The notes below the pieces were generated by a model. It saw only the letters and a list, made by a program, of their open reading frames with translations, had not been told where the DNA came from and did not search any database. This document shows positions 13,180 through 56,625 of a stretch of 64,000 bases of DNA, piece after piece. The translations under genes and the position numbers were made by a program. Origin of the DNA: Escherichia coli (lineage in GTDB: Bacteria; Pseudomonadota; Gammaproteobacteria; Enterobacterales; Enterobacteriaceae); NCBI RefSeq assembly GCF_009931435.1, contig NZ_CP043414.1; one strand, given 5' to 3'. Within the stretch, counting starts at the first letter, position 1; every line of letters begins with the position of its first letter.

Positions 13180-13197
13180 CAATTAAGGCTGCAATCA

Positions 13198-15884: not shown

Positions 15885-15887
15885 CAA

Positions 15888-17258
15888 ATGGCTCGTTCTT
15901 TTAAAGTCTTATCGCCAACGGCAATCCTCGGGTATGGATTCCCGGAAGAGAGCTTCCGCAAAGCGATGGCAGAATCGCCCGATCTGATCGCCGTTGATGC
16001 AGGCTCTTCCGATCCTGGCCCCCACTACCTCGGGGCGGGCAAACCGTTTACCGATCGCGCAGGGGTCAAGCGCGATCTGCGCTATATGATCACCGCAGGC
16101 GTGCAAAATAATATACCGGTGGTGATCGGAACGGCCGGCGGTTCTGGTGCCGCTCCACACCTGGAGTGGTGCCGAGAAATAATTCATGAGATTGCCCGGG
16201 AAGAGCACCTCGCGTTCTCGATGGCGCTGATCCCGGCAGACGTTGACAAAGCCATCGTCCACCAGGCGCTGGATAACGGCAAAATCACAGCGCTGGATTT
16301 TGTCCCGCCGTTAACCCACGACGCGATTGACGAAAGTACGTATATCGTCGCGCAAATGGGCATCGAACCCTTCCAGCAGGCGCTGAAAGAAGGCGCGCAA
16401 GTGGTGCTGGGCGGGCGCGCTTACGACCCGGCCTGCTTTGCTGCGCTACCGATCATGCAAGGCTTTGATGAAGGTCTGGCGCTGCATTGTGGGAAAATCC
16501 TTGAATGCGCGGCAATCGCCGCAACGCCCGGCTCAGGCTCTGACTGTGCGATGGGCATCATTGATGACAACGGCTTTACGCTGAAGACATTTAATCCGAA
16601 GCGTAAATTTACCGAAACGTCAGCGGCTGCACACACACTGTATGAGAAATCCGATCCCTACTTCCTGCCAGGACCTGGCGGCGTGTTGAACCTGAAAGGC
16701 TGCACATTTAAAGCGGTCAATGACGGCGAAGTGTACGTCAGCGGTTCTAAGCATGAAGAAACGCCGTATGCCCTGAAACTGGAAGGTGCGCGGCGGGTGG
16801 GCTTCCGCTGTCTGACCATCGCAGGAACGCGCGACCCGATCATGATCGCCGGGATCGATAAAATCATCGATGAAGTCAAAACCAGCGTTTCGCGTAACCT
16901 GTCGCTCGACGATGACAGCATTCGCATCAATTTCCACCTGTACGGCAAAAACGGGGTGATGGGCGACCATGAACCGATGCAAACTGCCGGGCATGAGCTG
17001 GGGATTGTCCTTGATGTAGTTGCACCGACCCAGGATATTGCCAATAGCGTTTGCTCGCTGGTGCGCTCTACCATGCTGCACTACGGCTATGAAAACCGCA
17101 TCGCTACCGCAGGCAACCTGGCGTTCCCGTTCTCCCCTTCTGATATCCAGGGCGGGCCGGTATACGAATTTTCCATATATCACCTGATTGAAGCCAACGA
17201 CGCTCTGCGTTTTGATTTCCATATTGAACAGGTGACGCCAGAAGGAGTTCAGGCATGA
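15888..17258 (+). CDS. DUF1446 (AtuA-like) family protein, function unknown
   Basis: 456-aa ORF tightly linked downstream of mal; sequence resembles the acyclic-terpene-utilisation AtuA-like family as recalled. Confidence 0.6.
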   Translation: MARSFKVLSPTAILGYGFPEESFRKAMAESPDLIAVDAGSSDPGPHYLGAGKPFTDRAGVKRDLRYMITAGVQNNIPVVIGTAGGSGAAPHLEWCREIIHEIAREEHLAFSMALIPADVDKAIVHQALDNGKITALDFVPPLTHDAIDESTYIVAQMGIEPFQQALKEGAQVVLGGRAYDPACFAALPIMQGFDEGLALHCGKILECAAIAATPGSGSDCAMGIIDDNGFTLKTFNPKRKFTETSAAAHTLYEKSDPYFLPGPGGVLNLKGCTFKAVNDGEVYVSGSKHEETPYALKLEGARRVGFRCLTIAGTRDPIMIAGIDKIIDEVKTSVSRNLSLDDDSIRINFHLYGKNGVMGDHEPMQTAGHELGIVLDVVAPTQDIANSVCSLVRSTMLHYGYENRIATAGNLAFPFSPSDIQGGPVYEFSIYHLIEANDALRFDFHIEQVTPEGVQA

Positions 17259-17572
17259 AACAGTCAATTGTCTCACTGGCGCAAGTCATTCGTTCGAAAA
17301 ATGCCGGACCTTACGAACTGGTTTTAGATATTTTATTTAAAACGAAAGAAAACTATGAGCGAGTAAAATCATCAGGGCAATTAACCCCAGAACTGATTGC
17401 GCGCTTATATCATGTTGAACCTGACTTTATTCATCGTATTGTCTGGTTTGATCCTTCTAACGCAGTAAAAATTGTCATGCCACGAGATATTATCTCCGGG
17501 AATGTAGGTGACAATGATGTCTATGGCGCACAGCAACATGCACCTTTATTAAATATGAGTTTCGATTTGTAA
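17255..17572 (+). CDS. DUF4387-family small protein (partner of DUF1446 proteins)
   Basis: 105-aa ORF overlapping the previous stop by 4 nt (translational coupling). Confidence 0.55.
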   Translation: MKQSIVSLAQVIRSKNAGPYELVLDILFKTKENYERVKSSGQLTPELIARLYHVEPDFIHRIVWFDPSNAVKIVMPRDIISGNVGDNDVYGAQQHAPLLNMSFDL

Positions 17573-17732
17573 AAATCCGAACACTTTTAGCCAACTGACA
17601 TCCCGTCACTTATTGCAGCTCAACACTTCAGCTATTTGTAAGGTTGTTATAGCAGGTAGATGCCTGAATCTCTATTCAGGCATCCACTTCTCCTGATTCT
17701 GATTTATCGCCGTGCACCTGATGGAGGAAAAA

Positions 17733-19013
17733 ATGAAGAAAATAAGTTTAACCACGATGATTCTTTTGGCGCTGGTACTTGGAATGATTATCGGCGTAGT
17801 GCTCAATAACACTGCTTCACCGGAAACAGCAAAACTCTATGCGCAAGAAATATCGATATTCACGACGATTTTCTTACGACTGATAAAAATGATTATCGCT
17901 CCGTTAGTGGTCTCTACCCTGGTGGTAGGTATTGCTAAAATGGGCGATGCCAAAGCCCTTGGTCGTATTTTTTCTAAAACACTCTTTTTATTTATTTGCG
18001 CCTCATTGCTGTCAATTGCCTTAGGCTTGATAACGGTAAATTTCTTCATGCCAGGCACAGGAATTAATTTTGTTGCACACGGTGCCGAAACCACCGGAGT
18101 GGTCGCGTCAGAACCCTTTACACTAAAAGTATTTATTTCGCATGCTTTCCCCACCAGCATTGTCGATGCCATGGCGCACAATGAAATTTTGCAAATCGTG
18201 GTGTTCTCAATTTTCCTCGGCTGTAGCCTGACGGCGATTGGTGAGAAAGGCAGCGCCATCGTTCACGCCTTAGATTCGCTGGCACATGCCATGTTAAAGC
18301 TCACTGGCTACGTCATGCTCTTCGCTCCCCTGACCGTATTCGCCGCTATTTCAGCATTGATTGCTGAACGAGGACTGGCAGTTATGGTGAGCGCCGGGAT
18401 CTTTATGGGTGAATTTTATTTCACCATGTTATTACTTTGGGTGCTGCTTATCGGTCTGGCCATCGTTTATGTCGGCCCCTGCATCAGACGCCTGACCCGC
18501 GCCCTTTCAGAACCCGCCCTGCTGGCATTTACCACATCCAGTTCTGAAGCTGCTTTTCCGGGAACGCTTGAAAAACTGGAGCAATTTGGCGTTTCCCCCA
18601 AAATTGCCAGCTTTGTCTTACCCATTGGCTACTCATTTAATCTCGTTGGATCAATGGCCTACTGCTCCTTCGCCACAGTTTTCATCGCCCAGGCCTGCAA
18701 TATCCATTTATCCATCGGTGAGCAAATCACCATGCTGTTGATCCTGATGTTGACCTCGAAAGGAATGGCTGGCGTACCACGCGCCTCAATGGTGGTTATC
18801 GCCGCCACGCTCAACCAGTTCAATATTCCGGAAGCGGGGCTGATCTTGCTGATGGGCGTTGATCCGTTCCTTGATATGGGGCGTTCCGCGACAAACGTCA
18901 TGAGCAACGCAATGGGCGCTGCGATGGTGAGTCGGTGGGAAGGCGAACATTTCGGCGAGGGCTGTCGGGGTAAAGCATTAAAACCCAATGAATCGAACGT
19001 TGCTCTGCCCTGA
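17733..19013 (+). CDS. Dicarboxylate/amino acid:cation symporter (DAACS, GltP-like); putative glutamate or C4/C5-dicarboxylate uptake
   Basis: About 426-aa polytopic membrane protein with DAACS-like sequence; GGAGG upstream of the ATG at 17733 (track ORF starts at 17712). Confidence 0.75.
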   Translation: MKKISLTTMILLALVLGMIIGVVLNNTASPETAKLYAQEISIFTTIFLRLIKMIIAPLVVSTLVVGIAKMGDAKALGRIFSKTLFLFICASLLSIALGLITVNFFMPGTGINFVAHGAETTGVVASEPFTLKVFISHAFPTSIVDAMAHNEILQIVVFSIFLGCSLTAIGEKGSAIVHALDSLAHAMLKLTGYVMLFAPLTVFAAISALIAERGLAVMVSAGIFMGEFYFTMLLLWVLLIGLAIVYVGPCIRRLTRALSEPALLAFTTSSSEAAFPGTLEKLEQFGVSPKIASFVLPIGYSFNLVGSMAYCSFATVFIAQACNIHLSIGEQITMLLILMLTSKGMAGVPRASMVVIAATLNQFNIPEAGLILLMGVDPFLDMGRSATNVMSNAMGAAMVSRWEGEHFGEGCRGKALKPNESNVALP

Positions 19014-19120
19014 GGGGGATCTTAAGCAATCAGAAGCCAATGACTACGCATTTTTATAAGCCGGATCATGAAGTTAGACGGCAATTAAGTAACACTAACG
19101 TTTAAGGTGAAAAGTGAAAT

Positions 19121-20773
19121 ATGTCCAAACCATTTATCTGGCAAGAACCGTTTCTACAAAATAAAGACGGTACAGAATATACATTAATTAGCGATCAACA
19201 TATTACAGTAACGGAATTAGACGGCGAAGAAGTAATAAAAATCGCTCCTGAAGCATTAACGCTGCTTGCCCGGCAGGCATTTTATGAAGCCTCTTTTTTC
19301 TTACGTTCCGCTCATTTGCAACAGGTCGCCAGCATTCTTAACGATCCGCAGGCCAGCAGTAATGATAAATACGTTGCGTTGCAGTTATTACGTAATGCTG
19401 AAGTCTCAGCAAAAGGGGTATTACCCAACTGTCAGGATACCGGCACCGCAACTATTGTTGCCAGTAAAGGGCAACAGATATGGACGGGAGGTAACGACGC
19501 TGAAGCCTTAAGCAAAGGCATTTACAGTACTTTCCAGGAAAATAATCTGCGCTTTTCACAAAATGCGCCGCTGGATATGTATACCGAAGTCAATACGCAA
19601 ACCAATCTTCCGGCGCAGATTGATATCAGCGCTGTCGCTGGTAATGAGTACCATTTTCTCTGTGTTAATAAAGGGGGCGGCTCCGCCAATAAAGCCGCAC
19701 TTTATCAGGAAACCAAATCCTTATTGCAACCAGAAAAACTGACCGCATTTTTAATCGACAAAATGAAATCGTTGGGCACGGCCGCCTGCCCGCCCTACCA
19801 CATCGCCTTTGTCGTCGGAGGGCTTTCAGCCGATCAAACCTTAAAAGTTGCCAAGCTGGCCTCTACGAAATATTACGACAATTTGCCCACCAGCGGAAAC
19901 GAGCAGGGACAAGCATTCCGTGATATTGAGCTGGAAAAAGCGTTGCTCGAGGCCAGTCAGCAATTTGGTATTGGTGCGCAATTTGGGGGTAAATATTTCG
20001 CTCATGATATTCGCGTCATTCGTCTGCCGCGTCACGGTGGCTCTTGCCCGATAGCTATGGCGCTCTCCTGTTCTGCCGATCGCAATATCAAAGCAAAAAT
20101 TAACAAGCATGGTATCTGGCTGGAAAAACTCGAACACAATCCGGGGCAATATATTCCAGCCTCACTGCGGGAAGAAAATCACGCGCAACATGTACAGCTG
20201 GATCTAAACCGTCCGTTGCGTGACGTGATGCAGGATCTCGCCAGATTACCGGTAGGTACCCGCGTGTCGTTAAGTGGTCCCATCGTAGTGGCGCGCGATA
20301 TCGCCCACGCAAAAATAAAAGCGCGGCTGGATAGCGGCGAATCGATGCCGGATTACCTGAAGCATCATATTGTCTATTACGCTGGCCCGGCGAAAACACC
20401 GGAGAACATGGCCTGCGGTTCACTGGGTCCAACCACGGGCGGTCGAATGGACGGTTATGTCGAAACCTTCCAGGCGGCTGGCGGCAGTCTGGTAATGTTA
20501 TCGAAAGGTAACCGCAGCCAGCAGGTCACCGATGCCTGTCACAAACATGCAGGCTTCAATCTGGGAAGTATTGGCGGTGCAGCTGCGTTACTGGCGCAAG
20601 AATATGTCAAAAGTCTGCGTTGCCTGGAATACCCGGAGCTGGGTATGGAGGCGGTGTGGATGATGGAAGTGGAAAATCTGCCCGCATTCATCCTGGTTGA
20701 TGATAAAGGCAATAATTTCTTTAGCCAGTTTGAGCAGCAACACCGCTGCGCCAGTTGCCCTGCGGGACATTAA
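19121..20773 (+). CDS. fumD: Class I (Fe-S) fumarate hydratase family; probable mesaconase/fumarase
   Basis: 550-aa FumA/FumB-like ORF (..[10 protein letters not shown]..); its position in a glutamate mutase/methylaspartase cluster suggests mesaconate hydratase. Confidence 0.8.
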
Positions 20774-20782
20774 GGAAAATGA

Positions 20783-21385
20783 ATGGAAGCGCGAATTTCA
20801 ACTGAACGGCATGTGCAGCGCCAACAGAAATTGAAGGAACAGGTCGATACGCGCGTCGCGGCGGCGATAGAGAAAAAAGGGATCTTGATTGTTTTCACCG
20901 GCAACGGCAAAGGGAAATCCACTGCCGCGTTTGGTACTGTGACGCGCGCGGTGGGTCATGGCAAAACGGTGGGGGTTGCGCAGTACATCAAGGGGCAATG
21001 GGACAACGGCGAATACAACCTTCTCCAGCCGCTGGGGGTTGAGTTTCATATTATGGGAACCGGTTTTACCTGGGAGACTCAGAACCGGCAAGCGGATATC
21101 GACGCGGCGAAAGAGGTCTGGTCGGAAAGCAAACGGATGCTGGCTGACAAGCGTTACGACTTAGTGGTGCTTGATGAGCTGACCTATATGCTGGCTTACC
21201 ATTATCTGGACACCGAAGAAGTGATCACTTCTCTGCAAAACCGCCCGGCACAACAAAGTGTCATTGTCACCGGACGCAGTTGCCACAGTCAGATATTAAA
21301 AATGGCGGATACGGTCAGCGAAATCCGCCCCGTCAAACATGCTTTTGATAACGGCATTCAGGCGCAGCCGGGTATCGACTGGTAA
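20783..21385 (+). CDS. Cob(I)yrinic acid a,c-diamide / corrinoid adenosyltransferase (CobA/BtuR/CobO family)
   Basis: 200-aa ORF with P-loop GNGKGKSTAAFG; would supply adenosylcobalamin for glutamate mutase. Confidence 0.8.
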   Translation: MEARISTERHVQRQQKLKEQVDTRVAAAIEKKGILIVFTGNGKGKSTAAFGTVTRAVGHGKTVGVAQYIKGQWDNGEYNLLQPLGVEFHIMGTGFTWETQNRQADIDAAKEVWSESKRMLADKRYDLVVLDELTYMLAYHYLDTEEVITSLQNRPAQQSVIVTGRSCHSQILKMADTVSEIRPVKHAFDNGIQAQPGIDW

Positions 21386-21418
21386 TAACTGCGCCTGGCA
21401 TCCAGCCAGGCGCAGGTT

Positions 21419-22324
21419 TTACATCTCCTGCGGTACGACCGATTTCGCCAGCAACCATTCACGAAATTGCTGCAAGTGCGGCGAGTCAGACTTCTCTTCC
21501 TGCCACGTCATAATAAAACGATTACCGGTACGAATAGGCACATCACAGGGAATCACCATATCGCCACTATCCAAATCATGTTGAATAGCGAACCGTGGTA
21601 ACAGCGCCACGCCGAGATTAGAGCGCACGGCGGCAATCAGCATTGAAAGCAAATCGAAACGTGGTCCGTTATTGACCAGCGGACTGCTAACGCCAGATAA
21701 AGCAAACCACTCTTCCCAGCCAGTAATACGGGTGCTTTGATGCAGAAGTGGTAACTCAGTAAGCAGTTCTGCCACTGACAGTTTTTGATCGGACATTGCA
21801 AGCAAACTGCCGCTGCATACCGGCAAAATCTCCTCTTCAAAGAGATATTCTACTTCCGCCCAGGGCGCGCAAAAATTTTCGCGCATAATGACAGCATCGT
21901 ACTCCCGATTAAGAAAATCGCCGTTATTAGCTAAAGAATGAATATTAACAATAATATCGGGATGTAACTTTGTGAATTCATGTAAATTTGGGATTAACCA
22001 GTGGGTACTAAACGTAGGATTAACGGCAAGTTCAATAACCTGAACCGTAGGCTGCCAGGTCATAATCGTATTGGTATCGCGCTCCAATTTATTTAATGTT
22101 TCTTTTACTATCCCCAGGTAATACTTCCCTGCATCATTAAGAAAAATGCGTTTTTTAGAGTGTGAAAATAACGGAGTATGTAAAAATTCCTCCAACGCAC
22201 TTACTTGTCTGAATACTGCACTTTGGGTTAACGCTAACTCCTCTGCCGCTCTGGTATAACTTTCATGACGTGCGACGACCTCAAAAGTCACCAGCAGCTC
22301 CGTTTTAGGTATTTTTCCTCGCAT
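21419..22324 (-). CDS. LysR-family transcriptional regulator
   Basis: 301 aa; N-terminal HTH (LLVTFEVVARHESYTRAAEELALTQSAVFRQVSALE) plus substrate-binding domain. Confidence 0.85.
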   Translation of the reverse strand: MRGKIPKTELLVTFEVVARHESYTRAAEELALTQSAVFRQVSALEEFLHTPLFSHSKKRIFLNDAGKYYLGIVKETLNKLERDTNTIMTWQPTVQVIELAVNPTFSTHWLIPNLHEFTKLHPDIIVNIHSLANNGDFLNREYDAVIMRENFCAPWAEVEYLFEEEILPVCSGSLLAMSDQKLSVAELLTELPLLHQSTRITGWEEWFALSGVSSPLVNNGPRFDLLSMLIAAVRSNLGVALLPRFAIQHDLDSGDMVIPCDVPIRTGNRFIMTWQEEKSDSPHLQQFREWLLAKSVVPQEM

Positions 22325-22471
22325 AATGCCGTCCCTTAAAAATAGTTTAAACCATCAAAAATACATTACTTATTACGAAGTAATGGTAACCAAAGCAGCA
22401 ATAAATAATTTATAAGAATCATGATTAACATTTATAACCCAGTAAGCCTGGCGTGACAATTATCTTAATCA

Positions 22472-22509
22472 GATAATAATAATCCGAAAAGCACAGCACC
22501 TTTCGGATT
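22472..22509 (-). terminator. Hairpin downstream of the hut-like operon (candidate terminator)
   Basis: atccgaaa-N-tttcggat inverted repeat in the AT-rich spacer between the HAL-like gene and the LysR gene. Confidence 0.4.
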
Positions 22510-22594
22510 ATCAGGAATTACATTAAGTGAAAATTATTAAATTGATATCATTTATCATATCTGTGGATATAATGATAAACAATCAACATAGATT

Positions 22595-24265
22595 TTATTT
22601 TTGATTTATAGCATATCCCTCTAAGAATTTTTGCGATGCTTCAATATCCGGGGTAAAGACCCGATCCTGACTGACAAATGGCACGACTTGACGATAAGCG
22701 GTGAACATCGCTTTTGTTGATTTGCCTAACGCCAGCTGTGGATCGGCTTGCAAGCGCAAATCAATCGCCTGGGCAGAATGCATCAGTTCAATGCCATAAA
22801 TGACATTCAAATTATCAACAACCTGTTTCAATCTTCTCGCCGCGTGGTCGTTATTGGCACCCGTATCTTCAATGCCTCCGGCTACCGGTTGAATATCGAA
22901 AGAAACCGGGTTAGCGAGATCGACATTTTCCGCATGCAGCGCAACAAACGGGATATGTAATGAACCGAAGCCATGACCTTTATTACCTGCTGCCGACAGG
23001 AAGCGTGACAAACCGGTAAAGTGATCATCTTCAAGATGCAGCGAGCGGCGCATACTGTTATGTGAAACATGCACTAACGCCACGGTCAGACGCTGGGTGG
23101 CAAGCGCAACCGGTAACGATTCGAAATTCGCCGTCGGGAAGATCCCACCGCTGATTGCCCCATCTTTAACAAAATATTGCGCGACCTGACTGGAGTCCTG
23201 ATACGCTTTGTCTGCATTCAGCACGGTTGCCGGGTTGTCATCGGAACTGTTGATCTGCACGGTAATGGTATCTTCAGCATCGCGCAACGCGCGCATTGCC
23301 TCAGAAATGGTATACACCGTCGTTCTGAACGATAACGGATCCTGCAATGCACGTTTGTCATCCTTATGCCATAAATAAGAACCACTTAACGCATCGCGAA
23401 TCTCTTTAGCGGAATCAGCCAACTGCGGGAAAGGACGCACGGCGATCGACTGCGGCAGTACCGGCGCGACATTGCCATTCAACGCTTCGAGGCTCATGGC
23501 GAAAACCACCGGACTGACATTCAGCACCTGGCGTGCCGACCGTACCGCTTCAATTGCATATGCTGTTCCGACACTGTTGTTCGACAAAATCGCCAGCATA
23601 TCTTTACCCTGCGGGACCAGTGGTTTAAGCCCCACTTTCACCAGCGCATCGCCACCACTCATTTCCACGCCATTAACCCGCGCTTTCCACTCGCCCATCA
23701 TCACCAGACCAACGTGTGAAGCGAGCATAATATCCGCTGCGCCGATACTTCCCCGCGCCGGAATTAACGGCGTAACGCCTCGATTAATAAACTCGGCATA
23801 CAACTCGGCAATATAAGGCTGCGCGCCGGTTTGCCCATGCAACATAGTATTTAAACGTAACACCATTGAGAGACGGGCAAGATAATCCGGCAACATCGGA
23901 CCGACGCCCGCAGAATGGGCGCGCAGCGCGGCAGCATTAAATTTTTTCGATGCGTCAATCACCTCAGGCGTTAAATTTCCTTTGGCATCAAATATGGGCT
24001 GATCTTTATTTAGCCCCACGCCCACGGTTAAGCCATAAACAGGCGTACCTGAATGCGCGGCAGTCATCACCAGATCATAACTTTTTTCCATGCGCTCCAT
24101 GGCGTTCGACGCGATTTTGACGCCGTTATCACCTAATGCAATTGACCAGGCCTGGTCAATAGAGAGATGTTCGCCATCCAGCGTAATGGTTGATTTTGCC
24201 ATCGCGATGGAGCAAACGCTCCAGAGCACAACGGTGACAGTGACTCTGCGTATCAATCCTTTCAT
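22595..24265 (-). CDS. Histidine ammonia-lyase-like protein (aromatic amino acid lyase fold) with N-terminal signal peptide and no Ala-Ser-Gly MIO triad
   Basis: 556 aa; MKGLIRRVTVTVVLWSVCSIAMA|KS signal-like N-terminus; region aligning to the HAL GSxGASGDLAPL motif reads GSIGAADIMLASH. Confidence 0.7.
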   Translation of the reverse strand: MKGLIRRVTVTVVLWSVCSIAMAKSTITLDGEHLSIDQAWSIALGDNGVKIASNAMERMEKSYDLVMTAAHSGTPVYGLTVGVGLNKDQPIFDAKGNLTPEVIDASKKFNAAALRAHSAGVGPMLPDYLARLSMVLRLNTMLHGQTGAQPYIAELYAEFINRGVTPLIPARGSIGAADIMLASHVGLVMMGEWKARVNGVEMSGGDALVKVGLKPLVPQGKDMLAILSNNSVGTAYAIEAVRSARQVLNVSPVVFAMSLEALNGNVAPVLPQSIAVRPFPQLADSAKEIRDALSGSYLWHKDDKRALQDPLSFRTTVYTISEAMRALRDAEDTITVQINSSDDNPATVLNADKAYQDSSQVAQYFVKDGAISGGIFPTANFESLPVALATQRLTVALVHVSHNSMRRSLHLEDDHFTGLSRFLSAAGNKGHGFGSLHIPFVALHAENVDLANPVSFDIQPVAGGIEDTGANNDHAARRLKQVVDNLNVIYGIELMHSAQAIDLRLQADPQLALGKSTKAMFTAYRQVVPFVSQDRVFTPDIEASQKFLEGYAINQK

Positions 24266-24315
24266 TGTGTTTCCTTATTTTGATGAGTTTAACAACGGAT
24301 TACTGCAACAACCTC

Positions 24316-25266
24316 TTAATTTGTTTTATCTGTTTTTCCTCGACGGACAATAGTGGCAGCCAGGCGAGCGGCAACCTTCGCGGTCAAATTATCGCGGTCC
24401 AAATCTGGGTTCAGTTCGGCAATATCCGCAGCAATCAACTTCTCGCTACCGGCAATTAAATTCACAATAGCCTCAGCAATATTTAATGGCACGCCTAACG
24501 GCGAAGGCGCAGAAACGCCAGGAGCCTGATAACCCGGTAAGACATCAAGACAAATCGTTAAATAAATGGCGTCACACGCCTGAATATCTGCCGAGAGCGC
24601 ATTAACAATCTCATGCAAACCACGTTCAAATTGCAGAGATTCATCCAGCCAATAACGCACACCAGGACAATCAGCACGATCAAATAACGCCTGAGTGTTG
24701 GCATAACGGCTTATTCCCAGCACGCGATAATGAAACGGTTTGCCATGCTGCGCATTCCACTCCTGCATCTGCCGAAACGGCGTACCCGAATTGGCCTTTT
24801 CCGCCATCCGCAAATCAAAATGCGCGTCAAGGTTGACTATCAGCAGTCGCCGAATATCCGGACGCGACTGCATAATCCCCTGAAATGTTCCCCATGCCAC
24901 TTCATGACCGCCGCCCAGAACGACCGGCAAACTGCCGCGCGCAATTGCCATAGCCACGTTTTCCGCCAGACGGTTTTGTGCGGGTTCCAGCGCGTGGTCT
25001 TCGCTTTGCACGTCACCCATGTCAAAAATAGCGCCTTCATGGAGCACTGGCATATTGCCCAACATGCTGCGTAATGCGCCCGGTCCGCCTGCTGCGCCCG
25101 CTCGCCCACCGTTACGTTGCACCCCGTCATCGACGGCAAAACCAATCAGCGTACTGCCTCCATGACTTTGTTCGGTAAACGGTTTTACATGCTGATGCCA
25201 GCGGGTGCTGACGCCAGTTTCCTGCGAGTCAACACGTCCACTCCATGCCATAAATGTTTGCTTCAT
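24316..25266 (-). CDS. hutG: Formimidoylglutamase (arginase-family HutG)
   Basis: Arginase/ureohydrolase-like ORF; start placed at MKQTFMAWSG so the ATG overlaps the hutI stop. Confidence 0.75.
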   Translation of the reverse strand: MKQTFMAWSGRVDSQETGVSTRWHQHVKPFTEQSHGGSTLIGFAVDDGVQRNGGRAGAAGGPGALRSMLGNMPVLHEGAIFDMGDVQSEDHALEPAQNRLAENVAMAIARGSLPVVLGGGHEVAWGTFQGIMQSRPDIRRLLIVNLDAHFDLRMAEKANSGTPFRQMQEWNAQHGKPFHYRVLGISRYANTQALFDRADCPGVRYWLDESLQFERGLHEIVNALSADIQACDAIYLTICLDVLPGYQAPGVSAPSPLGVPLNIAEAIVNLIAGSEKLIAADIAELNPDLDRDNLTAKVAARLAATIVRRGKTDKTN

Positions 25267-26477
25267 TACCAACTCCTTTTTCCGCCGACAATCAGCCCCA
25301 GACAAGGCTGATGTCCAAACCAGTAAGCCAGCTCACGCGGATGATTAAGATCCCAAACAGCCATATCCGCCCGTAGTCCCGGCGCAAGTTCACCCCGATC
25401 AACAAGTCCAAGCGCTTTTGCCGCATGACGTGTAACGCCCTGAACGGCTTCCAGCGGGGTCATGTGAAACAGCGTACAGGCCATATTGATCATCAACTGC
25501 AATGACATGTTGGGAGACGTTCCGGGGTTATGATCCGTGGAGATGGCAATCGGCACACCTGCGGCCCGCAGAGCGACAATCGGCGGCAGATGGGTTTCGC
25601 GCAGGAAGTAATAAGCACCGGGAAGCAAAACCGCCACTGTTCCAGCCGCTTTCATGGCGGCGATCCCCGACTCGCTCAGGTACTCCAGATGATCGCAGGA
25701 GAGTGCAGAAAACGCCGCTGCCAGCGCCGCGCCTTGCTGGTCAGAAAGCTGTTCGGCATGCAGTTTTACAGGTAATCCATAGCTTTGCGCTTTACTGAAA
25801 ACGCGCCGTACCTGCTCTGGAGTAAAGGCGATGTTTTCACAAAAAGCATCAACTGCATCAATCAGCCCCTGTTCATGCAACACGCACATCCAGTCGCAAA
25901 GCGCCGTAATGTAATCATCACTGCGCCCGGCAAACTCTGGCGGCAGGCTGTGCGCCCCGAGAAACGTAGACTGAATATGTAACCCGGTAGATTGCTGCAA
26001 GCGGCGGATCACGCGTAAACAACGCGCTTCATCTTCCAGCGTTAAGCCATAACCCGATTTGATTTCAAGCGTACTGACGCCTTCACGTTGCCAGTTTCGC
26101 AGTCGCTGCGCCGCCAGTTCAAACAGCTGTGTTTCGCTGGCTGCCCGCGTGGCATTAACCGTAGATAAGATCCCGCCGCCCGCTCTGGCGATATCTTCAT
26201 AAGCCACGCCTTGCAACCGCATCTCAAACTCGTTCGCCCTCTGGCCGCCATACACCAGATGTGTATGACAATCTACCAGACCGGGTGTCAGCAACTTACC
26301 CTGTAGATCGTGTTCTTCTGTAATATCAGCCGTCAGTTCACGGGGGATCTGCGTGGCCTTCCCAAGCCAGACAATCGAGTCACCGCGGCTGATTAATGCA
26401 CCGTTTTCAATCACCCCCCAATCATTAGCCGAAAGCGTCGTCAGGGTGGTATTTCGCCAGAGCGTAAATGCACTCAT
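25266..26477 (-). CDS. hutI: Imidazolonepropionase
   Basis: Amidohydrolase ORF with DCHTHLVYGG metal-binding motif; start at MSAFTLW overlapping the hutD stop. Confidence 0.85.
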   Translation of the reverse strand: MSAFTLWRNTTLTTLSANDWGVIENGALISRGDSIVWLGKATQIPRELTADITEEHDLQGKLLTPGLVDCHTHLVYGGQRANEFEMRLQGVAYEDIARAGGGILSTVNATRAASETQLFELAAQRLRNWQREGVSTLEIKSGYGLTLEDEARCLRVIRRLQQSTGLHIQSTFLGAHSLPPEFAGRSDDYITALCDWMCVLHEQGLIDAVDAFCENIAFTPEQVRRVFSKAQSYGLPVKLHAEQLSDQQGAALAAAFSALSCDHLEYLSESGIAAMKAAGTVAVLLPGAYYFLRETHLPPIVALRAAGVPIAISTDHNPGTSPNMSLQLMINMACTLFHMTPLEAVQGVTRHAAKALGLVDRGELAPGLRADMAVWDLNHPRELAYWFGHQPCLGLIVGGKRSW

Positions 26478-27064
26478 AAGGATTTTTCCCCTCGTAGATA
26501 ATAAATCCACCAACCCGCCAGCTCGCCGACGGAGACTTTTTGCTGTGGTACGAAACGCCAGGAGTTGCCATCAGGCGCAAACCGCCATAACAACGTATTC
26601 GCCGTTACAAACACCCTGTTCTCGCCGCTTATCCACTCCCCTTCACACAGCGTGAACAGCCCCGCTTGCGCATGCGCCGGAGGGAGCCAGTCAATGACGC
26701 TTTGCACACGACGCATCCCCGCATCGCCTTCCCGCGCCATAATATTCAGATCGCGAACCCCGCCGCCCAGCAGCTGACAATCAGGCATTGCTTCTCCAGG
26801 GAAAATTAAGGCGGGATCGTGACGTTGCAGGTTGATGATCGAATCGGCAAACGTTAGCTTCACCCCTTCCCCGTCGAGGATCGCGAGGCCACGAACCACG
26901 CCAGGCCACGCTGAAAAAGGGCCATCCTGACTGACATTCGCCATACTGATGCGCAACAACCAGTTTTCATCATCGGGCCAGGCAAGCAGCTGTCGGGTAA
27001 ACCCCCCGCCGTTGCGCCACGGTTGCAGCGGCTTATCCATTGCAGAAATCAGCATCGGTTCCAT
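26474..27064 (-). CDS. hutD: HutD-family protein
   Basis: 196-aa ORF (..PWRNGGGFTRQL..) resembling HutD; embedded in the hut cluster. Confidence 0.65.
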   Translation of the reverse strand: MEPMLISAMDKPLQPWRNGGGFTRQLLAWPDDENWLLRISMANVSQDGPFSAWPGVVRGLAILDGEGVKLTFADSIINLQRHDPALIFPGEAMPDCQLLGGGVRDLNIMAREGDAGMRRVQSVIDWLPPAHAQAGLFTLCEGEWISGENRVFVTANTLLWRFAPDGNSWRFVPQQKVSVGELAGWWIYYLRGEKSL

Positions 27065-27065
27065 A

Positions 27066-28475
27066 TTAAGACTCGGGATAAATCGTATAAGCAGGAACGC
27101 AGGTGGTGCGTTTGGCCCACGGGTAATAGATAACGGCGGTAATTAACAAGCCGACAATCCAGGAGATATCCGCCCCATCCATCAGGACAGAAATGGGTCC
27201 CTGATACAGTTTTTGATTCAGGAAGGGGATCTGCACCAACACGCCTACGCCATAGCACGTCAAAGCGGTTTTGTTATACGCGCCATAACGCCCTTCCGGG
27301 GTATAAAGCGCTGGAATATCGGTTTTACCTTGTGAGATGAAGTAATAATCGATGAGATTAATGGCACTCCACGGAACAAATACCGTCAACAGTAGCAGAA
27401 CGAAGTTTTTGAAATTATTCAAAAAATCTGCGCTTGCCGCCAGCGCGACGACCATCGACAACAGCACGAACCCTACAACGTAGGCAGCACGAACACGCTG
27501 TGAAACCTGACTGCGATCATTAAAGGCGCTGACGGTCGCCAGAATCGACATAAAGCCACCGTAGGCATTCAAACAGTTCACCGTCAGTTTGCCGCAAACA
27601 ATCACCATATAAATCAGAATGGCGAAGGTGGGTCCGGCTAACTCGCCCATAAAACCAACCTGATCCTTCAGGAAGTTAGCACCACAGGCCGCAACAAGTA
27701 CGCCAAACGTCATGGCACATTGCGCACCAAGCGTGGTTCCCAGAAAGGTGGCAAAGAAGATTGATTTTGCTGGCGTATCAGAGGGTAAATAGCGGGAATA
27801 ATCAGAGGCGTAAGGGGCAAACGTTAATTGCCATCCGGCAGAGAGAGCAATCGTTAATAAAAAGACCGACAGACTAAATGGCTTTTGACCAAATGCCGCA
27901 GCCACATCGTAGTGACCGCTAAGTTGAGTGGCCAGGTAAATAAACCCCAGAATACTTAATATCCCTGCAACACGGCCAACGACGTGAATTAGTTTATAAC
28001 CGACCAATGCGATCATCGCGGTCAGCATGCCGAAAATAATAATTCCGGTCGATGCCGATTCGAAACCAAATATCCGGTTAATCGCCTGACCGGATAATAC
28101 TGTACCCGTCGCGGCAAATCCAAGGTACATAATAATCACCATCAGTAACGGTAGCGCCGCTCCTTTAACGCCAAAGCGGATACGACTGGAGATCATCTGG
28201 GGTAATCCCAGCTTTGCCCCCTGCGACGAGTGCAATGCCATTACTGCACCACCAATAATATTACCGATTAATAAACCAATTATTGCTGACATAGCTTCGG
28301 AGCCAAAAATAATCGCTAACGCGCCGTCCACCACTGCGGTAATTTGTAAGTTAGCACTTAGCCATAAAGTAAACTGACTAGATGGCGCGCCGTGGCGAGC
28401 AGACTCAGGAACGGCGTTAATCGTATTTGATTCTAATACTGGCTTTTTACTGCGGATAGGGCTGCTTGATTCCAT
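27066..28475 (-). CDS. NCS1-family (cytosine/purine/uracil/allantoin-type) permease; candidate histidine/urocanate/imidazole-compound importer
   Basis: Polytopic membrane ORF; start set at MESSSP with AGGAGA RBS (track ORF starts at 28520). Confidence 0.7.
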   Translation of the reverse strand: MESSSPIRSKKPVLESNTINAVPESARHGAPSSQFTLWLSANLQITAVVDGALAIIFGSEAMSAIIGLLIGNIIGGAVMALHSSQGAKLGLPQMISSRIRFGVKGAALPLLMVIIMYLGFAATGTVLSGQAINRIFGFESASTGIIIFGMLTAMIALVGYKLIHVVGRVAGILSILGFIYLATQLSGHYDVAAAFGQKPFSLSVFLLTIALSAGWQLTFAPYASDYSRYLPSDTPAKSIFFATFLGTTLGAQCAMTFGVLVAACGANFLKDQVGFMGELAGPTFAILIYMVIVCGKLTVNCLNAYGGFMSILATVSAFNDRSQVSQRVRAAYVVGFVLLSMVVALAASADFLNNFKNFVLLLLTVFVPWSAINLIDYYFISQGKTDIPALYTPEGRYGAYNKTALTCYGVGVLVQIPFLNQKLYQGPISVLMDGADISWIVGLLITAVIYYPWAKRTTCVPAYTIYPES

Positions 28476-28638
28476 GAAAAAGTCTCCTGCAAAATGAGAG
28501 GTCATTTTTTGAAACAGCAATAGAGGGTCGGGAGATATTTTTCTCGACGATGTAAAAATATTTTTTGATAATTATTGTTATACAGGCGAATTATTCTCCG
28601 CCTGTATTAGCGCAAATATTAAATGACGGCGTTAATAT

Positions 28639-30336
28639 TTAGCGAATCATCGGTAATTTCAGACCATAGTTTTTGGCACATTCAATTGCCGCTTCATAAC
28701 CCGCATCCGCATGACGCATAACCCCGGACGCACAGTCATTCACCAGCACACGCGCCAGACGTTTTTCGGCTTCTTCGCTACCATCGGCAACAATAACCAT
28801 CCCGGCGTGTTGTGAATACCCCATCCCGACGCCGCCGCCATGATGCAGGGATACCCACGTTGCTCCCCCTGCAGTGTTGAGCAAACCGTTGAGCAACGGC
28901 CAGTCAGAAACCGCATCACTGCCATCAAGCATGCTTTCGGTTTCGCGGTTCGGGCTGGCGACAGAACCGGTATCAAGATGATCGCGCCCAATCACAATCG
29001 GTGCTTTTAGTTCACCGTTGCGCACCATTTCGTTGAATGCCAGCCCCGCCAGGTGACGCTCACCAAGCCCCAGCCAGCAAATACGTGAAGGAAGTCCCTG
29101 GAAGGCAATGCGCTCGCGCGCCATATCCAGCCAGCGATGCGTCAGTACGTTATTGGGGAACAACTCTTTAATTTTGGCATCGGTTTTATAGATATCTTCC
29201 GGGTCGCCAGACAGCGCCACCCAACGGAATGGACCTTTGCCTTCACAAAACATTGGACGAATATAAGCCGGAACAAAGCCCGGGAAATCAAAGGCATTTT
29301 GCAGACCTTCGTTGAAGGCCACCTGGCGGATGTTGTTGCCATAATCGACAACCGGGATCCCCATCGCCTGGAAGTCCAGCATCCCCTGAACATGTGCGAC
29401 GCAGCTCTGTGCCGCTTCTTTTTGCAATCTGGCGTGTTGCTGTGGATCCTGCTGTGCAGCGCGCCATTGTTCTACGCTCCAGCCCATCGGTAGGTAGCCA
29501 TAAACCAGATCGTGAGCGGAAGTCTGGTCGGTTACCAGATCCGGCTTAATCGCCCCCTGATGCGCACGTTTCACCAGCTCAGGAACAATTTCCGCCGCAT
29601 TGCCCAACAGCGCGATTGAAACAGCGTCTTTGCGCTCGGTATGGTATTTAATCAGCGCCAGTGCATCATCAAGATCTTTCGCTTGTTTATCGACATAACG
29701 GGTACGCAGTCGGAAGTCGATGCTACTTTGCTGGCACTCGATATTTAATGAGCACGCCCCCGCCAGAGTCGCCGCCAGCGGTTGTGCGCCACCCATACCA
29801 CCGAGCCCCGCGGTCAGGATCCATTTTCCACTCAGCGAATTGTTGTAGTGCTGACGACCCGCTTCAACAAAGGTTTCGAACGTTCCCTGCACAATGCCCT
29901 GACTACCGATGTAGATCCACGAGCCAGCGGTCATCTGGCCGTACATGAACAGACCTTTACGATCCAGTTCATTGAAATGATCCCAGTTGGCCCATTGCGG
30001 TACCAGGTTAGAGTTGGCAATCAATACGCGCGGCGCATCGGTATGCGTTTTAAACACGCCTACGGGTTTACCGGACTGAACCAGCAGTGACTCATCAGCT
30101 TCCAGATTTTTCAGTGATTCAAGGATCTTGTCAAAACACTCCCAGTTACGTGCCGCACGACCAATACCACCATACACCACCAGATGCTGTGGATTTTCGG
30201 CAACGTCGGGATCAAGGTTGTTCTGCAACATCCGGTAGGCTGCTTCAATTTGCCAGTTTTTGCAGTGCAGCTGCGTACCGTGTGGCGCATGGATTACACG
30301 GCTGGTATCAATACGCGGGTCTGAAGGCTTACTCAT
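28639..30336 (-). CDS. hutU: Urocanate hydratase (urocanase)
   Basis: About 565 aa from [47 protein letters not shown]; AGGAGA RBS upstream; the track ORF extends to 30435. Confidence 0.9.
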
Positions 30337-30454
30337 GAATCTTCTCCTGTTACTTGATAAAATTAAACGCTGTAATCGGTCAGAAAAAACGAACGAATGA
30401 ATATAGAAACGGTTTCTATAATTCCCGTTTATCATTTTGTATTATTAATTCATT

Positions 30455-30487
30455 TAGTGAATATTGTTTGTCTTGGTATATTCACTA
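30455..30487. promoter_or_regulatory. Perfect 10-bp inverted repeat (TAGTGAATAT-N13-ATATTCACTA) in the hutU leader; candidate operator
   Basis: Seen directly, 20-50 bp upstream of the hutU start, in the divergent hutU / rtcB-like intergenic region. Confidence 0.4.
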
Positions 30488-31093
30488 TGAATATAAATTC
30501 AAAACCACCAACGCGTTGTATGCGAATTCAATATGCTTAATTTAACTTGTCGAAAAAGTGATATTGTTGGCAAAATATTTTCTAATTTGAACATATGAAT
30601 ATGATGAGATTGCAAGATGTCAGTAATTTAATTATCTAAGAAATGCGTTAATAACGACCAGATATTAGCGTAACAACAGGTGTTCCGACACCACACAGTG
30701 CGCATAACACAATGATATTTAAAATAAGATCTTCATTATTCGTCATAAAGACATGTTTTATTATCATTAATAATCCATTTGTTTTCATCCCACTTTTGAT
30801 AATTAAAAAACGGCAACAATGGCTAGTTACCCGACGTAAAAATAGGCGTAAAAATAAATCTTAAAATATATCCACTGGAAATTATCATTTTTCATATTTT
30901 ACAATCTGGCGTCGATAACTTACCCCTTTTATAACACCCCCGTTTGTTAATAGTCTTTTTTATCTTGTATTGATCGTCATTGCTGCATACACTACGCGCG
31001 TTTTCTTTCCCTTTTGCTGGCTGCTGACCGGAAAGACAAAATTACCCTCGCAATACAGGGGGTTGATTAACGTCTATATTTCAGGACAGCGTT

Positions 31094-32492
31094 ATGCATC
31101 ATCTTTCAAGGCTTGATAAAGCCTTTCTGCGCAAAGGGATCCAACTTTCCCGCGCCAACAATATTGTTTCATTATGTCGTCCATCAGGAGCCAGTGCCCG
31201 CGTACTGCTGCCGGACGAACTGCCGCTGGAAGAAAAAGCAGTGACACAACTGCTTGATTTTGCAGAAGTGAAGATACCAGGCCATCCAGGTTACGTACGC
31301 CAGACGTGCGCGACGCCAGATTTTCATCCCGGCAATGGCGTCCCCGTTGGCGCGGTGGTGGCCTCAACGCCGGATTTAGTCATTCCCGCCGCCATCGGCA
31401 CCGATATTTCTTGTGGCATGCGGCTGCTGACGACCGGATTAACCCTTGAGCAAGCCGAAGCGAATAAAGAAATAATCACTCAGCGGTTAACACAAGTGTT
31501 ACTGCAGAATGAGCGCGATGTTCCGTTATCCGCACGAGCGTTCACCGCGCTTTTTGATGGCGGACCGGCAGATTGCATGTCGGCCTTGCCATCAGCAGGT
31601 CTCTGGACACGTACAAATATCCCCCGGATGACGCAAGAGATTGACCGCTGCATTGGGCTTAACGAGCATAACAGTCATTCGCGTTATGCCCCCACCTGCC
31701 CTGCTGGCAACGGACCGCGCATTACTCCGCGATCCTTGTCTTGGTACGCCGGGTTCAGGTAATCATTTTATTGAACTTCAGGTCGTTGATAGCGTGGTTG
31801 ATCGCCATGTAGCCTGGCAACAAGGGCTGAAAACAGGCGATATTGTGGTGATGATCCACAGTGGATCGCGAGATGTTGGCTTTTACGTCGGAAGACGCTG
31901 GATGGATCGCGCCCGTGCTGAATGGCCCACCGGACATAAACATCCACAAAGCGGGTTATATGGTCTGGCAGGCGGACTGGCGGAGGAATATCTACAAGCG
32001 ATAGGAATGGCGGCGCGTTACGCGTGGTTAAATCGCGTGACAATTGCCGAAATGGTGCGCGTATGTCTTGCCAATCTCTTTCATCAGGACAATTCGCATC
32101 TGGTGGTGGATGTGCCACATAACATCATCCTTCGCGAGCATGAAATGAATATTCATCGCAAAGGCGCAACACCGGCACGAGTGGGCAATCTGGCGTTAAT
32201 CCCCGGTTCAATGGGCGATTATTCGTGGCTTGCGGTTGGTTGCGGCAACCCGGAGTGGCTGTGGTCATGCAGTCACGGAGCAGGACGCAGCCAGCGTCGG
32301 CAGGCCATGCGCTCACGCGCGACTGAAGAGTCAACGCTGCCGTGGCAATGCGTCACATTGCGCGAAGAACGACGTCTTGAAGAAGCGCCAGCGGCTTATA
32401 AAGATATTGGTCCGGTTATCGAAGCCCAACAAGAAGCCGGATTAATTCAGCCTGTGGTCAGATTTCGACCGTGGTTAACGTTTAAGGCATAA
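31094..32492 (+). pseudogene. RtcB-family RNA ligase-like gene split by a frameshift (or a sequencing error) near 31690
   Basis: Two overlapping ORFs in different frames (31094..31762 and 31641..32492) carry RtcB-like motifs (DISCGMRLL; GSGNHFIELQ; CSHGAGRS); C5 run at 31688-31692. Confidence 0.6.
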
Positions 32493-32493
32493 A

Positions 32494-32590
32494 AAAGGCC
32501 ATCATACGATGGCCAACCATGTCGAAACCGACAGCCCTTCGCCATTCCTGTAGAGGGAAGCGGCGAGGGCTATTTCTTATTACAGATATT
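32494..32590 (-). ncRNA. sdhX: sucD 3' UTR with intrinsic terminator; position corresponds to the 3'UTR-derived sRNA SdhX (RybD)
   Basis: ggccatc-atac-gatggcc hairpin followed by a T-run on the - strand right after the sucD stop; the sRNA identity is by position only. Confidence 0.4.
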
Positions 32591-33459
32591 TATTTCAGAA
32601 CAGTTTTCAGTGCTTCACCGATATCCGCCAGGCTGCGAACGGTTTTCACGCCTGCGGCTTCCAGAGCAGCGAATTTCTCATCCGCAGTCCCTTTCCCACC
32701 GGCAATGATGGCACCCGCGTGGCCCATACGTTTGCCTTTCGGCGCAGTTACACCAGCGATGTAACCTACAACTGGCTTGGTAACGTGCTCTTTGATGTAC
32801 GCAGCCGCTTCTTCTTCAGCGCTACCGCCGATCTCACCGATCATCACGATCGCTTCGGTCTGCGGATCTTTTTCGAACATTTCGAGGATGTCGATAAAGT
32901 TAGAGCCAGGGATCGGGTCGCCGCCGATACCGACACAGGTCGACTGACCGAAACCGTAATCCGTGGTCTGTTTAACCGCTTCATAGGTGAGTGTACCGGA
33001 ACGGGAAACGATACCCACTTTACCCGGTTTGTGAATGTGACCCGGCTGGATACCGATTTTGCATTCACCCGGAGTGATAACGCCCGGGCAGTTCGGGCCG
33101 ATCATACGAACGCCTGCTTCATCCAGTTTCACTTTCACGGTCAGCATATCCAGCGTCGGGATGCCTTCAGTGATGGTGATAATCAGTTTGATACCTGCGT
33201 CGATGGCTTCCAGAATGGAGTCTTTGCAGAACGGAGCCGGTACGTAGATAACAGAAGCGGTAGCGCCAGTGGCAGCAACGGCTTCACGCACGGTGTTGAA
33301 CACCGGCAGACCGAGGTGGGTAGTACCGCCTTTACCTGGGGTTACGCCGCCAACCATTTTAGTGCCGTATGCAATGGCCTGTTCAGAGTGGAAAGTCCCC
33401 TGGCTACCAGTAAAGCCCTGGCAGATAACCTTGGTGTTTTTATCAATTAAAATGGACAT
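32590..33459 (-). CDS. sucD: Succinyl-CoA synthetase alpha subunit
   Basis: 289 aa, [45 protein letters not shown]. Confidence 0.97.
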
Positions 33460-34625
33460 TATTTCCCCTCCACTGCGGCAACAACCTGCTGAGCTGCATC
33501 CGTCAGACCTTTTGCTGCAATAATATTCAGGCCGCTGTCAGCCAGTTTCTTCGCGCCGAGTTCGGCGTTGTTACCTTCCAGACGTACCACGACCGGTACG
33601 TTAACACCCACTTCCGCTACCGCGCCGATGATACCGTCAGCGATCAGGTCGCAACGAACGATACCACCGAAGATGTTAACCAGAACGGCTTTCACTTTGT
33701 CGTCAGAGAGGATGATTTTGAACGCTTCGGTTACACGTTCTTTGGTTGCGCCACCGCCAACGTCCAGGAAGTTAGCTGGTTCGCCACCGTGCAGTTTAAC
33801 GATGTCCATGGTACCCATCGCCAGACCTGCGCCGTTAACCATACAACCGATGTTACCGTCCAGCGCAACGTAGTTCAGTTCCCACTGTGCAGCCTGTGCT
33901 TCACGTGGATCTTCCTGCGACTGGTCGCGCATTTCGCGCAGATCAGGCTGGCGGAACAGTGCGTTGCCATCAGCACCCAGTTTACCGTCGAGGCAGATCA
34001 GATCGCCCTGTTTGGTGATGACCAGCGGGTTGATTTCGATCAACGCCAGGTCGCGCTCCAGGAAAATGGTCGCCAGGCCCATGAAGATTTTGGTGAACTG
34101 CTGAACCAGTTTACCTTCCAGACCCAGTTTGAACGCCAGCTCGCGTCCCTGATACGGCATCGGGCCAGTCAGCGGATCAAGCGCAACTTTGTGGATCAGG
34201 TGCGGAGTTTCTTCCGCCACTTTTTCGATTTCCACGCCGCCTTCGGTGGAGGCCATAAAGACCACGCGACGGGAACTACGGTCTACAACGGCACCAAGAT
34301 ACAGCTCTTTAGCGATATCGGTCGCTGCTTCAACCAGAATCTGGTTAACCGGTTGGCCATTAGCATCTGTTTGATACGTTACCAGACGCTTGCCCAGCCA
34401 GTTTTCTGCAAAAGCACGGATGTCTTCTTTGCTGTTTACAACTTTCACACCGCCCGCTTTACCGCGGCCACCAGCGTGAACCTGACATTTCACTACCCAC
34501 GGACCGGCACCGATTTTTGAAGCGGCTTCTTCTGCTTCGCGCGGAGTAGTACAGGCATAACCCACCGGTGCTGGTAAGCCATAGCGGGCAAACAGTTGTT
34601 TTGCCTGATATTCATGTAAGTTCAT
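33459..34625 (-). CDS. sucC: Succinyl-CoA synthetase beta subunit
   Basis: 388 aa, [39 protein letters not shown]; stop overlaps the sucD start. Confidence 0.97.

Positions 34626-54960: not shown

Positions 54961-56625
<1,665 letters not shown>

Follow-up and report, generated by a model that had tools for sequence, protein, structure and literature searches.

A conserved array of TGAAT half-sites upstream of hutU in Escherichia coli as a candidate operator for an unlinked regulator, tentatively ArgR

Introduction

Several classes of bacterial operator invite comparison with an interrupted inverted repeat placed in front of a catabolic operon. A LysR-type transcriptional regulator (LTTR) recognises a T-N11-A dyad upstream of a target that is usually transcribed divergently from the regulator gene, and a similar site is found at the promoter of the regulator itself. 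Long-spacer palindromic operators are exemplified by those of NikR (GTATGA-N16-TCATAC) and MlrA (11-N12-11). The arginine repressor ArgR is a hexamer in which each DNA-binding domain reads a TGAAT half-site, and its E. coli binding unit, the ARG box, has a consensus that we take, as established knowledge, to be WNTGAATWWWWATTCANW. The numbering of this consensus agrees with that in PMC6640053, and the canonical ArgR operator comprises two ARG boxes 2–3 bp apart within a 39-bp site (PMC4381063). ArgR controls histidine transport (hisJQMP) as well as arginine catabolism (PMC4381063, PMC5343134). The hut clusters of Proteobacteria are almost always under the control of HutC (PMC5343134), and in Klebsiella, Salmonella and Pseudomonas hut expression is governed by HutC, Nac, CRP, or NtrC together with sigma-54 (PMC5343134 and established knowledge).

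The hut module described here lacks HutC, and identifying any protein that binds the TGAAT array upstream of hutU would reveal how an acquired catabolic operon becomes connected to the regulatory network of its host. The significance of the locus is modest, in that it represents a strain-specific candidate operator and not a new kind of system, unless its capture by ArgR is confirmed.

Genomic context and distribution of the hut module

The 64-kb window, which is the whole stretch of E. coli DNA analyzed, carries hutU on the minus strand at positions 28639–30336. Its product, a urocanate hydratase of 565 aa, matches TIGR01228 at 934 bits against a cutoff of 375, and RefSeq annotates the gene in the same way in a genome that is 99.9% identical. 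As first in a minus-strand operon, hutU precedes genes for an NCS1 permease, hutD, hutI, hutG and a HAL-family lyase, an order supported by both NCBIfam and RefSeq. The gene is divergent, as noted in the first-pass annotation, from an RtcB-family gene on the plus strand (31094–32492), after which comes sucDCBA on the same strand. The RtcB-family gene is split in the window into two overlapping open reading frames (ORFs) by a frameshift, caused by an additional C at 31689; in a 99.9% identical genome (L001) the gene is intact and encodes 465 aa. The window copy is either a pseudogene or the product of a sequencing error. Downstream of the HAL gene and on the same strand lies a gene for a GcvA-like LysR-family regulator (21419–22324). 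The hutU–rtcB spacer and its flanks match E. coli chromosomes, with 2020CK-00188 the best at 99.9% and IAI39 and CE10 at 99.1%.

The limits of the module were obtained by BLAST of the hut-less strain 7/2 against the window. In strain 7/2 the LysR gene and rtcB are direct divergent neighbours, and 463 bp lying between them are replaced in the window by an unrelated 8.6-kb segment, 22343–30985, which includes 649 bp of AT-rich DNA upstream of hutU. The inverted repeat discussed below consequently belongs to the hut module, inside which no regulator gene is found. The first-pass annotation had reported that no HutC-type regulator is encoded in the cluster; this is correct and extends to the whole 64-kb window, and GntR-family genes are likewise absent from both the module and the window.

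Among 5426 complete E. coli genomes, 144 (~2.7%) contain the hutU control region, in every case as a single, unannotated copy at least 98.6% identical, and a further 151 carry rtcB with only 108 bp of upstream sequence and no hutU control region. Carriers of the module include strains from host lineages such as IAI39, CE10 and ST648, and also E. marmotae. HutU is 98–99% identical in E. marmotae and Escherichia sp. E2586, and the next relatives stand at 85–90%; the named ones outside Escherichia (85–86%) are nearly all from Betaproteobacteria, such as Vogesella. The betaproteobacterial affinity of these relatives (85–90% identity outside Escherichia) suggests that the module was acquired horizontally.

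Start codon of hutU and extent of the control region

The start codon of hutU is assigned to the ATG at 30336, which is preceded by an AGGAG Shine–Dalgarno sequence and yields the same 565-aa product as in RefSeq. The homologues listed for hutU, mostly 561–580 aa in length, are in line with this start, and other Escherichia lineages carry indels of 1–2 nt inside 30337–30435. The inverted repeat accordingly lies 119–151 bp upstream of the start codon rather than 20–50 bp, a figure that had been counted from the longest ORF, beginning with an ATG at 30435, and that would have placed the repeat over the core promoter. The spacer between the divergent genes is AT-rich as first described (32% G+C), and its length is 757 bp (30337–31093), not 660 bp.

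The inverted repeat and its variation

The perfect 10-bp inverted repeat TAGTGAATAT-N13-ATATTCACTA reported earlier is present at 30455–30487, with arms that are 100% complementary. Its left arm TAGTGAATAT occupies 30455–30464, its right arm ATATTCACTA occupies 30478–30487, and the apparently unconstrained 13-nt spacer TGTTTGTCTTGGT lies between them at 30465–30477. Taken alone, the palindrome is only weakly significant: an equal inverted repeat (perfect arms ≥10 nt, loop ≤20 nt) arose in 101 of 2000 dinucleotide-preserving shuffles of the hutU–rtcB spacer (~5%), and its half-site is not enriched in the window, where five copies with at most one mismatch were found against 2.8 expected.

Variation was analyzed in an alignment of ~330 bp upstream of hutU from 16 loci, which collapse to 10 distinct sequences from three Escherichia lineages. 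The left-arm core GTGAAT(AT), with its hutU-sense copy GTGAATAT, does not vary among E. coli, E. marmotae and Escherichia sp. E2586, nor does ATTCAC in the right arm. Outside E. coli there are differences at positions 30463, 30486 and 30487, so that only E. coli has the perfect 10-bp symmetry. Read in the hutU sense, the element is TA-GTGAATAT-(13 nt)-ATATTCAC-TA in E. coli, CG-GTGAATAT-(12 nt)-AAATTCAC-TA in E. marmotae, and GG-GTGAATAT-(13 nt)-AAATTCAC-CA in E2586. Position 30456 varies (T/C in the hutU sense) and is paired with an A/G change at 30486; one arm position changes on both sides (A:T, G:T, G:C) with the dyad symmetry kept. Across the three lineages, 4 of the 20 arm columns are variable, equal to the background rate of 20%. 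Within E. coli, no haplotype differs in the arms, and variation affects 3 of the 13 spacer positions; the haplotypes differ by five SNPs in the first 300 alignment columns, three of them within the 13-nt spacer and none in the arms.

A conserved array of TGAAT half-sites

The invariant arm cores form part of a larger arrangement, in which five TGAAT/ATTCA pentamers, here designated H0 to H4, fall within ~55 bp. H0 (ATTCA, 30448–30452) lies 5 bp from H1 and is invariant in all lineages; H1 (TGAAT, 30458–30462) and H2 (ATTCA, 30480–30484) reside in the left and right arms of the palindrome, respectively; H3 and H4 follow at 30488–30492 and 30497–30501. The array (30448–30501) is situated 112–165 bp upstream of the true hutU ATG. 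None of the 25 pentamer columns is variable, compared with 58 of the 298 remaining upstream columns (Fisher p=0.012), an invariance that covers E. coli (five haplotypes), E. marmotae and Escherichia sp. E2586. In the 13-nt spacer, by comparison with the same remainder, 8 of 13 columns are variable (Fisher p=0.0015). The length of the H1–H2 spacer is 12 nt in E. marmotae and 13 nt in E. coli and E2586, so the H1–H2 distance shifts by 1 bp between lineages. Distances within the outer pairs are fixed.

Because the half-sites are invariant and the spacer drifts, a protein-binding function is the best reading of this region, and the array is most likely an ordinary operator bound by a protein. The functional unit is probably the five-half-site array rather than the 10-bp palindrome itself. 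The suggestion that the palindrome could be the operator of an unlinked regulator fits these data as far as the invariant arm cores, the drifting spacer and the lack of a regulator gene in the hut module are concerned. In the proposed arrangement, the palindrome would be the central pair (H1, H2) of an array bound by an oligomeric regulator encoded outside the module.

An unlikely alternative is that the palindrome arose by chance in AT-rich acquired DNA that H-NS-type nucleoid proteins bind non-specifically, and that the local conservation reflects other overlapping promoter signals and not symmetry. The shuffling result, the background rate of variation in the arms and the restriction of perfect symmetry to E. 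coli all agree with this explanation, as do the low G+C content of the spacer, the betaproteobacterial affinity of the module's HutU outside Escherichia, and a second E. coli palindrome, described below, which is likewise degraded in the sister lineages. It accounts less readily for the contrast between invariant pentamers and a variable spacer, for a perfect ARG box directly abutting the palindrome, and for the slow evolution of the whole proximal 300 bp, in which ~20% of columns vary across the three lineages and which changes more slowly than the coding average (hut DNA is 90% identical between two of them).

Nesting of the half-sites is apparent in predicted folds, where H0 and H3 form the outer pair of a nested, imperfect palindrome of roughly 57 bp around H1–H2. 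The inverted repeat might act as RNA, in a hutU 5′ leader of at least 170 nt whose AU-rich nested hairpin (H0–H3, H1–H2) would affect elongation, stability or processing. Predicted folding energies for this segment in E. coli are −10.9 kcal/mol for 61 nt (z=−3.9) and −17 kcal/mol for 80 nt (z=−3.5), the consensus fold has the same topology with one pair kept as A-U, G-U or G-C, and the sole sigma-70-like site with weak conservation, TTCATA-16-TATTTT, is located further upstream, at −263 to −236. This stability is not conserved, z being −1.1 for E. marmotae and 0.0 for E2586; two stem positions have lost their pairing with no compensating change; and the stem, with only two G:C pairs in ten and no U-tract, does not resemble a terminator. 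An RNA role is rated as quite unlikely. An intrinsic terminator or attenuator was considered separately and rejected on the G:C content of the stem (2 of 10 pairs) and on a terminator scan that reported none at the palindrome. An Rfam scan of 28000–34000 at E-values up to 1 gave no match, and neither a combined sigma-70 and terminator scan nor a position weight matrix scan in the three lineages revealed a strong or conserved promoter.

ArgR as a candidate regulator

Abutting the right arm of the palindrome, and overlapping it by 2 bp, is the 18-mer TATGAATATAAATTCAAA (30486–30503), which holds H3 and H4 and matches the ARG-box consensus at 18 of 18 positions. It is the sole ARG-box match with at most one mismatch in the 64-kb window, and a perfect match occurred in 1 of 2000 shuffles of the spacer, a frequency that calls for a ~20–30-fold multiple-testing discount since many transcription factor consensus sequences were compared. 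Counted from the alignment, the box has one mismatch in E. marmotae and two in E2586.

The scan was calibrated on ten K-12 control regions (argECBH, argA, argF, argI, argG, argR, carAB, artJ, artP and argD), where it recovered what are presumably the recognised ARG operators, with individual boxes at 0–5 mismatches and pair totals of 2–7. Only argF and argI possess a box with no mismatch, and the hutU box is equally good. A second ARG box beside 30486–30503 was sought as well; the best partner has 8 mismatches, compared with at most 5 in the ten K-12 operators, and a pair total of at most 8 mismatches is reached in ~10% of shuffles. The canonical two-box ArgR operator is rejected on this ground.

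Compared with E. coli ArgR operators such as those of argF, argI, artJ and carAB P2, the hutU array uses the same TGAAT half-site with an A/T flank, includes one 18-bp box that matches the consensus 18/18, and precedes an operon for amino-acid catabolism. Each palindrome arm (A-G-TGAAT-A-T) resembles the left half of an ARG box, AGTGAAT-AT being similar to those of the artJ and carAB boxes, at a non-canonical spacing. The differences lie in architecture: the second box 2–3 bp away is missing, and the extra half-sites are spaced 8, 22 and 10 bp centre to centre, as opposed to 9-12-9 in ArgR operators. H1 and H2 are at non-canonical distances from the perfect box, H2 being 3–4 bp too close to form part of a second one, and the 1-bp change in the H1–H2 distance in E. 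marmotae is awkward for a rigid dimer. The heptamer TGAATAT is also common in this genome, with 34 copies found against 8.9 expected. To our knowledge, hut is not among the known targets of ArgR, and literature searches on E. coli hut regulation, on ArgR together with hut, and on the literal motif strings returned nothing relevant to the locus.

We regard ArgR, the resident arginine repressor, as the leading candidate for the protein that binds the half-site array, and hold this assignment tentatively. From the features set out above, their conservation and the consensus match, we infer both that a protein binds here and that it may be ArgR, and any direction of effect would likewise be inferred. 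Arginine-loaded ArgR could nucleate on the perfect H3/H4 box, the flanking half-sites could provide additional contacts or DNA wrapping, and the resulting complex would modulate transcription of the hut operon. In this way, a host regulator would take control of a horizontally acquired, HutC-less hut module. A specific version of this history, in which the operon lost or never had HutC and was captured by ArgR through a non-canonical operator of one perfect box and three isolated half-sites, two of which make up the palindrome, is conceivable but somewhat unlikely. Were it true, histidine or urocanate catabolism would be tied to arginine status, and ArgR would be seen to use single-box-plus-half-site architectures.

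Elsewhere in the window, an ARG-box-like 18-mer with two mismatches, AATGTATATTTATGCAAT, is present at 55015–55032, just upstream of the dipeptide permease gene dtpD; it could be a chance occurrence.

Classical hut regulators and the adjacent LysR protein

Motif comparison with the operators of the classical hut regulators had been proposed as a check on the palindrome. The consensus sites scanned included TGTGA-N6-TCACA for CRP, ATA-N9-TAT for Nac, TGCACC-N5-GGTGCA for NtrC, and TGGCAC-N5-TTGCW for sigma-54. The comparison with HutC, Nac, NtrC and CRP operators gave no match at the palindrome. Within the control region, CRP has no match with two or fewer mismatches and NtrC has none at all; a low-information Nac-type ATA-N9-TAT is kept in all lineages at 30418–30432, nearby but outside the palindrome; and the sole sigma-54 match, with two mismatches, is on the opposite strand and points away from hutU. 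For HutC, no match to GTNTANAC was found in the control region.

Comparison with the HutC operators of the Klebsiella, Salmonella and Pseudomonas hut promoters reveals the same setting upstream of hutU and a HutD protein encoded in the cluster. The hutU region nevertheless differs from them in having neither TGTATATACA, to which there are only partial, non-conserved resemblances of 8/10, nor a GTnTAnAC core; its palindrome has long arms and a long spacer; and hutC is found in neither module nor window. That HutC, Nac, CRP, or NtrC with sigma-54 acts at the palindrome, as their control of hut in other genera might lead one to expect, is thus largely refuted at the sequence level, and we consider it extremely unlikely.

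The first-pass annotation had also named the nearby LysR protein as a possible regulator. Under this explanation, the palindrome would be the operator through which the adjacent GcvA-like LysR protein controls hut. The LysR gene is the only regulator gene near the cluster, and it comes after the HAL gene in E. marmotae too. Moreover, hut-less strains share no more than the 18 bp immediately preceding its start codon, which places its upstream region within the hut module. The hutU palindrome shares with LTTR sites (T-N11-A) the form of an AT-rich interrupted dyad in a promoter region close to a LysR gene. Against this, the LysR gene is retained in E. coli strains without hut, beside rtcB and the methylaspartate genes, as part of a methylaspartate/glutamate-mutase island. 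It is located 8 kb downstream of hutU, on the same strand and not divergent, behind a terminator-like hairpin, and its own upstream region (22325–22594) has no TGAAT/ATTCA motif. Furthermore, the 10-N13-10 geometry and ARG-like half-sites are unlike the LTTR T-N11-A box. The proposal is unsupported by these findings, and regulation of hut by this protein through the palindrome is very unlikely.

Possible unlinked regulators other than ArgR

A regulator encoded elsewhere and other than ArgR might also use the half-site array as its operator, with an Lrp/AsnC-type protein, another oligomeric factor, or a co-acquired regulator located elsewhere in the genome as candidates; we judge this possible, though on the less likely side. 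A regulator of this kind might recognise the H1/H2 pair alone, as NikR and MlrA do with their long-spacer palindromes, or engage all five sites. The conservation pattern of the array fits this explanation as well as it fits ArgR, and the failure of the canonical two-box ArgR architecture and the arm position that changes on both sides while keeping dyad symmetry are in its favor. Like the NikR and MlrA operators, the hutU palindrome pairs inverted half-sites across a sequence-neutral spacer, at a separation of about two helical turns; it differs from them in its unrelated half-site sequences, in a spacer length that varies by 1 bp among lineages, and in the three further half-sites flanking the pair.

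Against such a regulator stands the lack of fit of CRP, Nac, NtrC, HutC, Lrp, IHF, Fur, FNR, ArcA, TyrR, PurR, Cra, DnaA and NikR-like sites. Scans with consensus sequences, including those for CRP, HutC, Lrp, GcvA, TyrR, PurR and NikR-like proteins, yielded only the ARG box, the Nac-like site and the wrong-strand sigma-54-like site. The perfect ARG box would, moreover, have to be a coincidence of about 1 in 2000 before correction, and the motif was found at no non-orthologous locus in the collections scanned.

Searches for additional copies of the element covered genome and metagenome collections. A scan of genome contigs with TGAATTTATATTCANNGTGAATAT recovered one metagenome-assembled genome (MAG) contig, labelled Citrobacter and identical to an E. 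coli haplotype, along with one chance coding match. A 22-mer of the conserved block upstream of the array, searched against metagenome contigs, returned known E. coli haplotypes and a chance match only. In the collections scanned, the composite site was found at no other locus and in no further lineage, and the upstream regions of the nearest non-Escherichia HutU relatives (88–90% identity) have nothing in common with the spacer. The MAG contig, L012 (DXKH01000067.1), comes from a gut genome designated 'Citrobacter sp.'; its hutU control region matches E. coli strain 1428 exactly, its genes run in the E. coli order (NCS1 permease to hutU, then rtcB, sucDC and sucA), and it is probably a mis-binned E. 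coli contig.

Additional features of the module and the spacer

The HAL-family lyase gene (22595–24265, minus strand) scores 277 bits against an hutH equivalog cutoff of 539, and the RefSeq name for the cluster's 'hutH' is HAL/PAL/TAL-family lyase, with nothing narrower; the true substrate may not be plain histidine. Its long ORF begins with the signal-peptide-like MKGLIRRVTVTVVLWSVCSIAMA, which the 535-aa form given in some records would remove. Relatives of this protein were traced to contigs without hutU, and one of 85% identity adjoins an NCS1 permease gene on a contig devoid of other hut genes (L022). Between the HAL gene and the LysR gene, at 22480–22510, is the terminator-like hairpin CCGAAAGG...CTTTTCGG with a T-rich run after it, and another hairpin, CAGGCG...CGCCTG, separates hutU from the permease gene (28575–28610, minus strand). 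In E. marmotae, hutU abuts sucD, and rtcB is absent (L008, L024).

Beside the hut module, at ~7400–21400, is a methylaspartate-pathway island whose genes, annotated from L020, comprise glmS, glmL, glmE, methylaspartate ammonia-lyase, AtuA, DUF4387, a dicarboxylate symporter, class I fumarase and cobO. The hut pathway yields glutamate and the methylaspartate pathway ferments it, and the two may be functionally coupled, in which case histidine or urocanate could be routed via glutamate to mesaconate.

Within the spacer, a near-invariant non-coding block of 129 bp (30508–30636, minus strand) lies 172–300 bp upstream of the hutU ATG. In this block, the most conserved stretch of the control region, E. 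coli and E. marmotae share ~97% identity, compared with 90% for the hut genes, and only 5 of ~106 columns between −285 and −181 vary among the three lineages; it is a candidate location for a promoter or upstream activating sites. The block contains the palindromes AAAATATTTT, GAATTC and ACGCGT and the TTCATA-16-TATTTT sequence, together with the sigma-54-like TGGCAA-N5-TTTCT on the opposite strand (30568–30583). Small ORFs in the spacer were considered as coding and rejected. They include a His-rich ORF of 38 aa (30499–30615), which has no Shine–Dalgarno sequence and, as read from the alignment, is interrupted by a stop codon in E. marmotae, and a neighbouring ORF of 21 aa, in which the three substitutions within the block all read as non-synonymous.

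A second perfect palindrome, TATAGAAAC-G-GTTTCTATA, occurs closer to hutU (30402–30420, 66–84 bp upstream of the ATG). It is perfect in most E. coli haplotypes, carries one change in IAI39, and is degraded in E. marmotae and E2586; in form it loosely resembles a LacI-family or KdgR-type GAAAC/GTTTC dyad with an odd centre. On the rtcB side of the spacer, the 12-bp unit CGTAAAAATAGG is repeated in tandem at 30835–30858, with two copies in the window and in most strains and three in strain 1428 and in L012.
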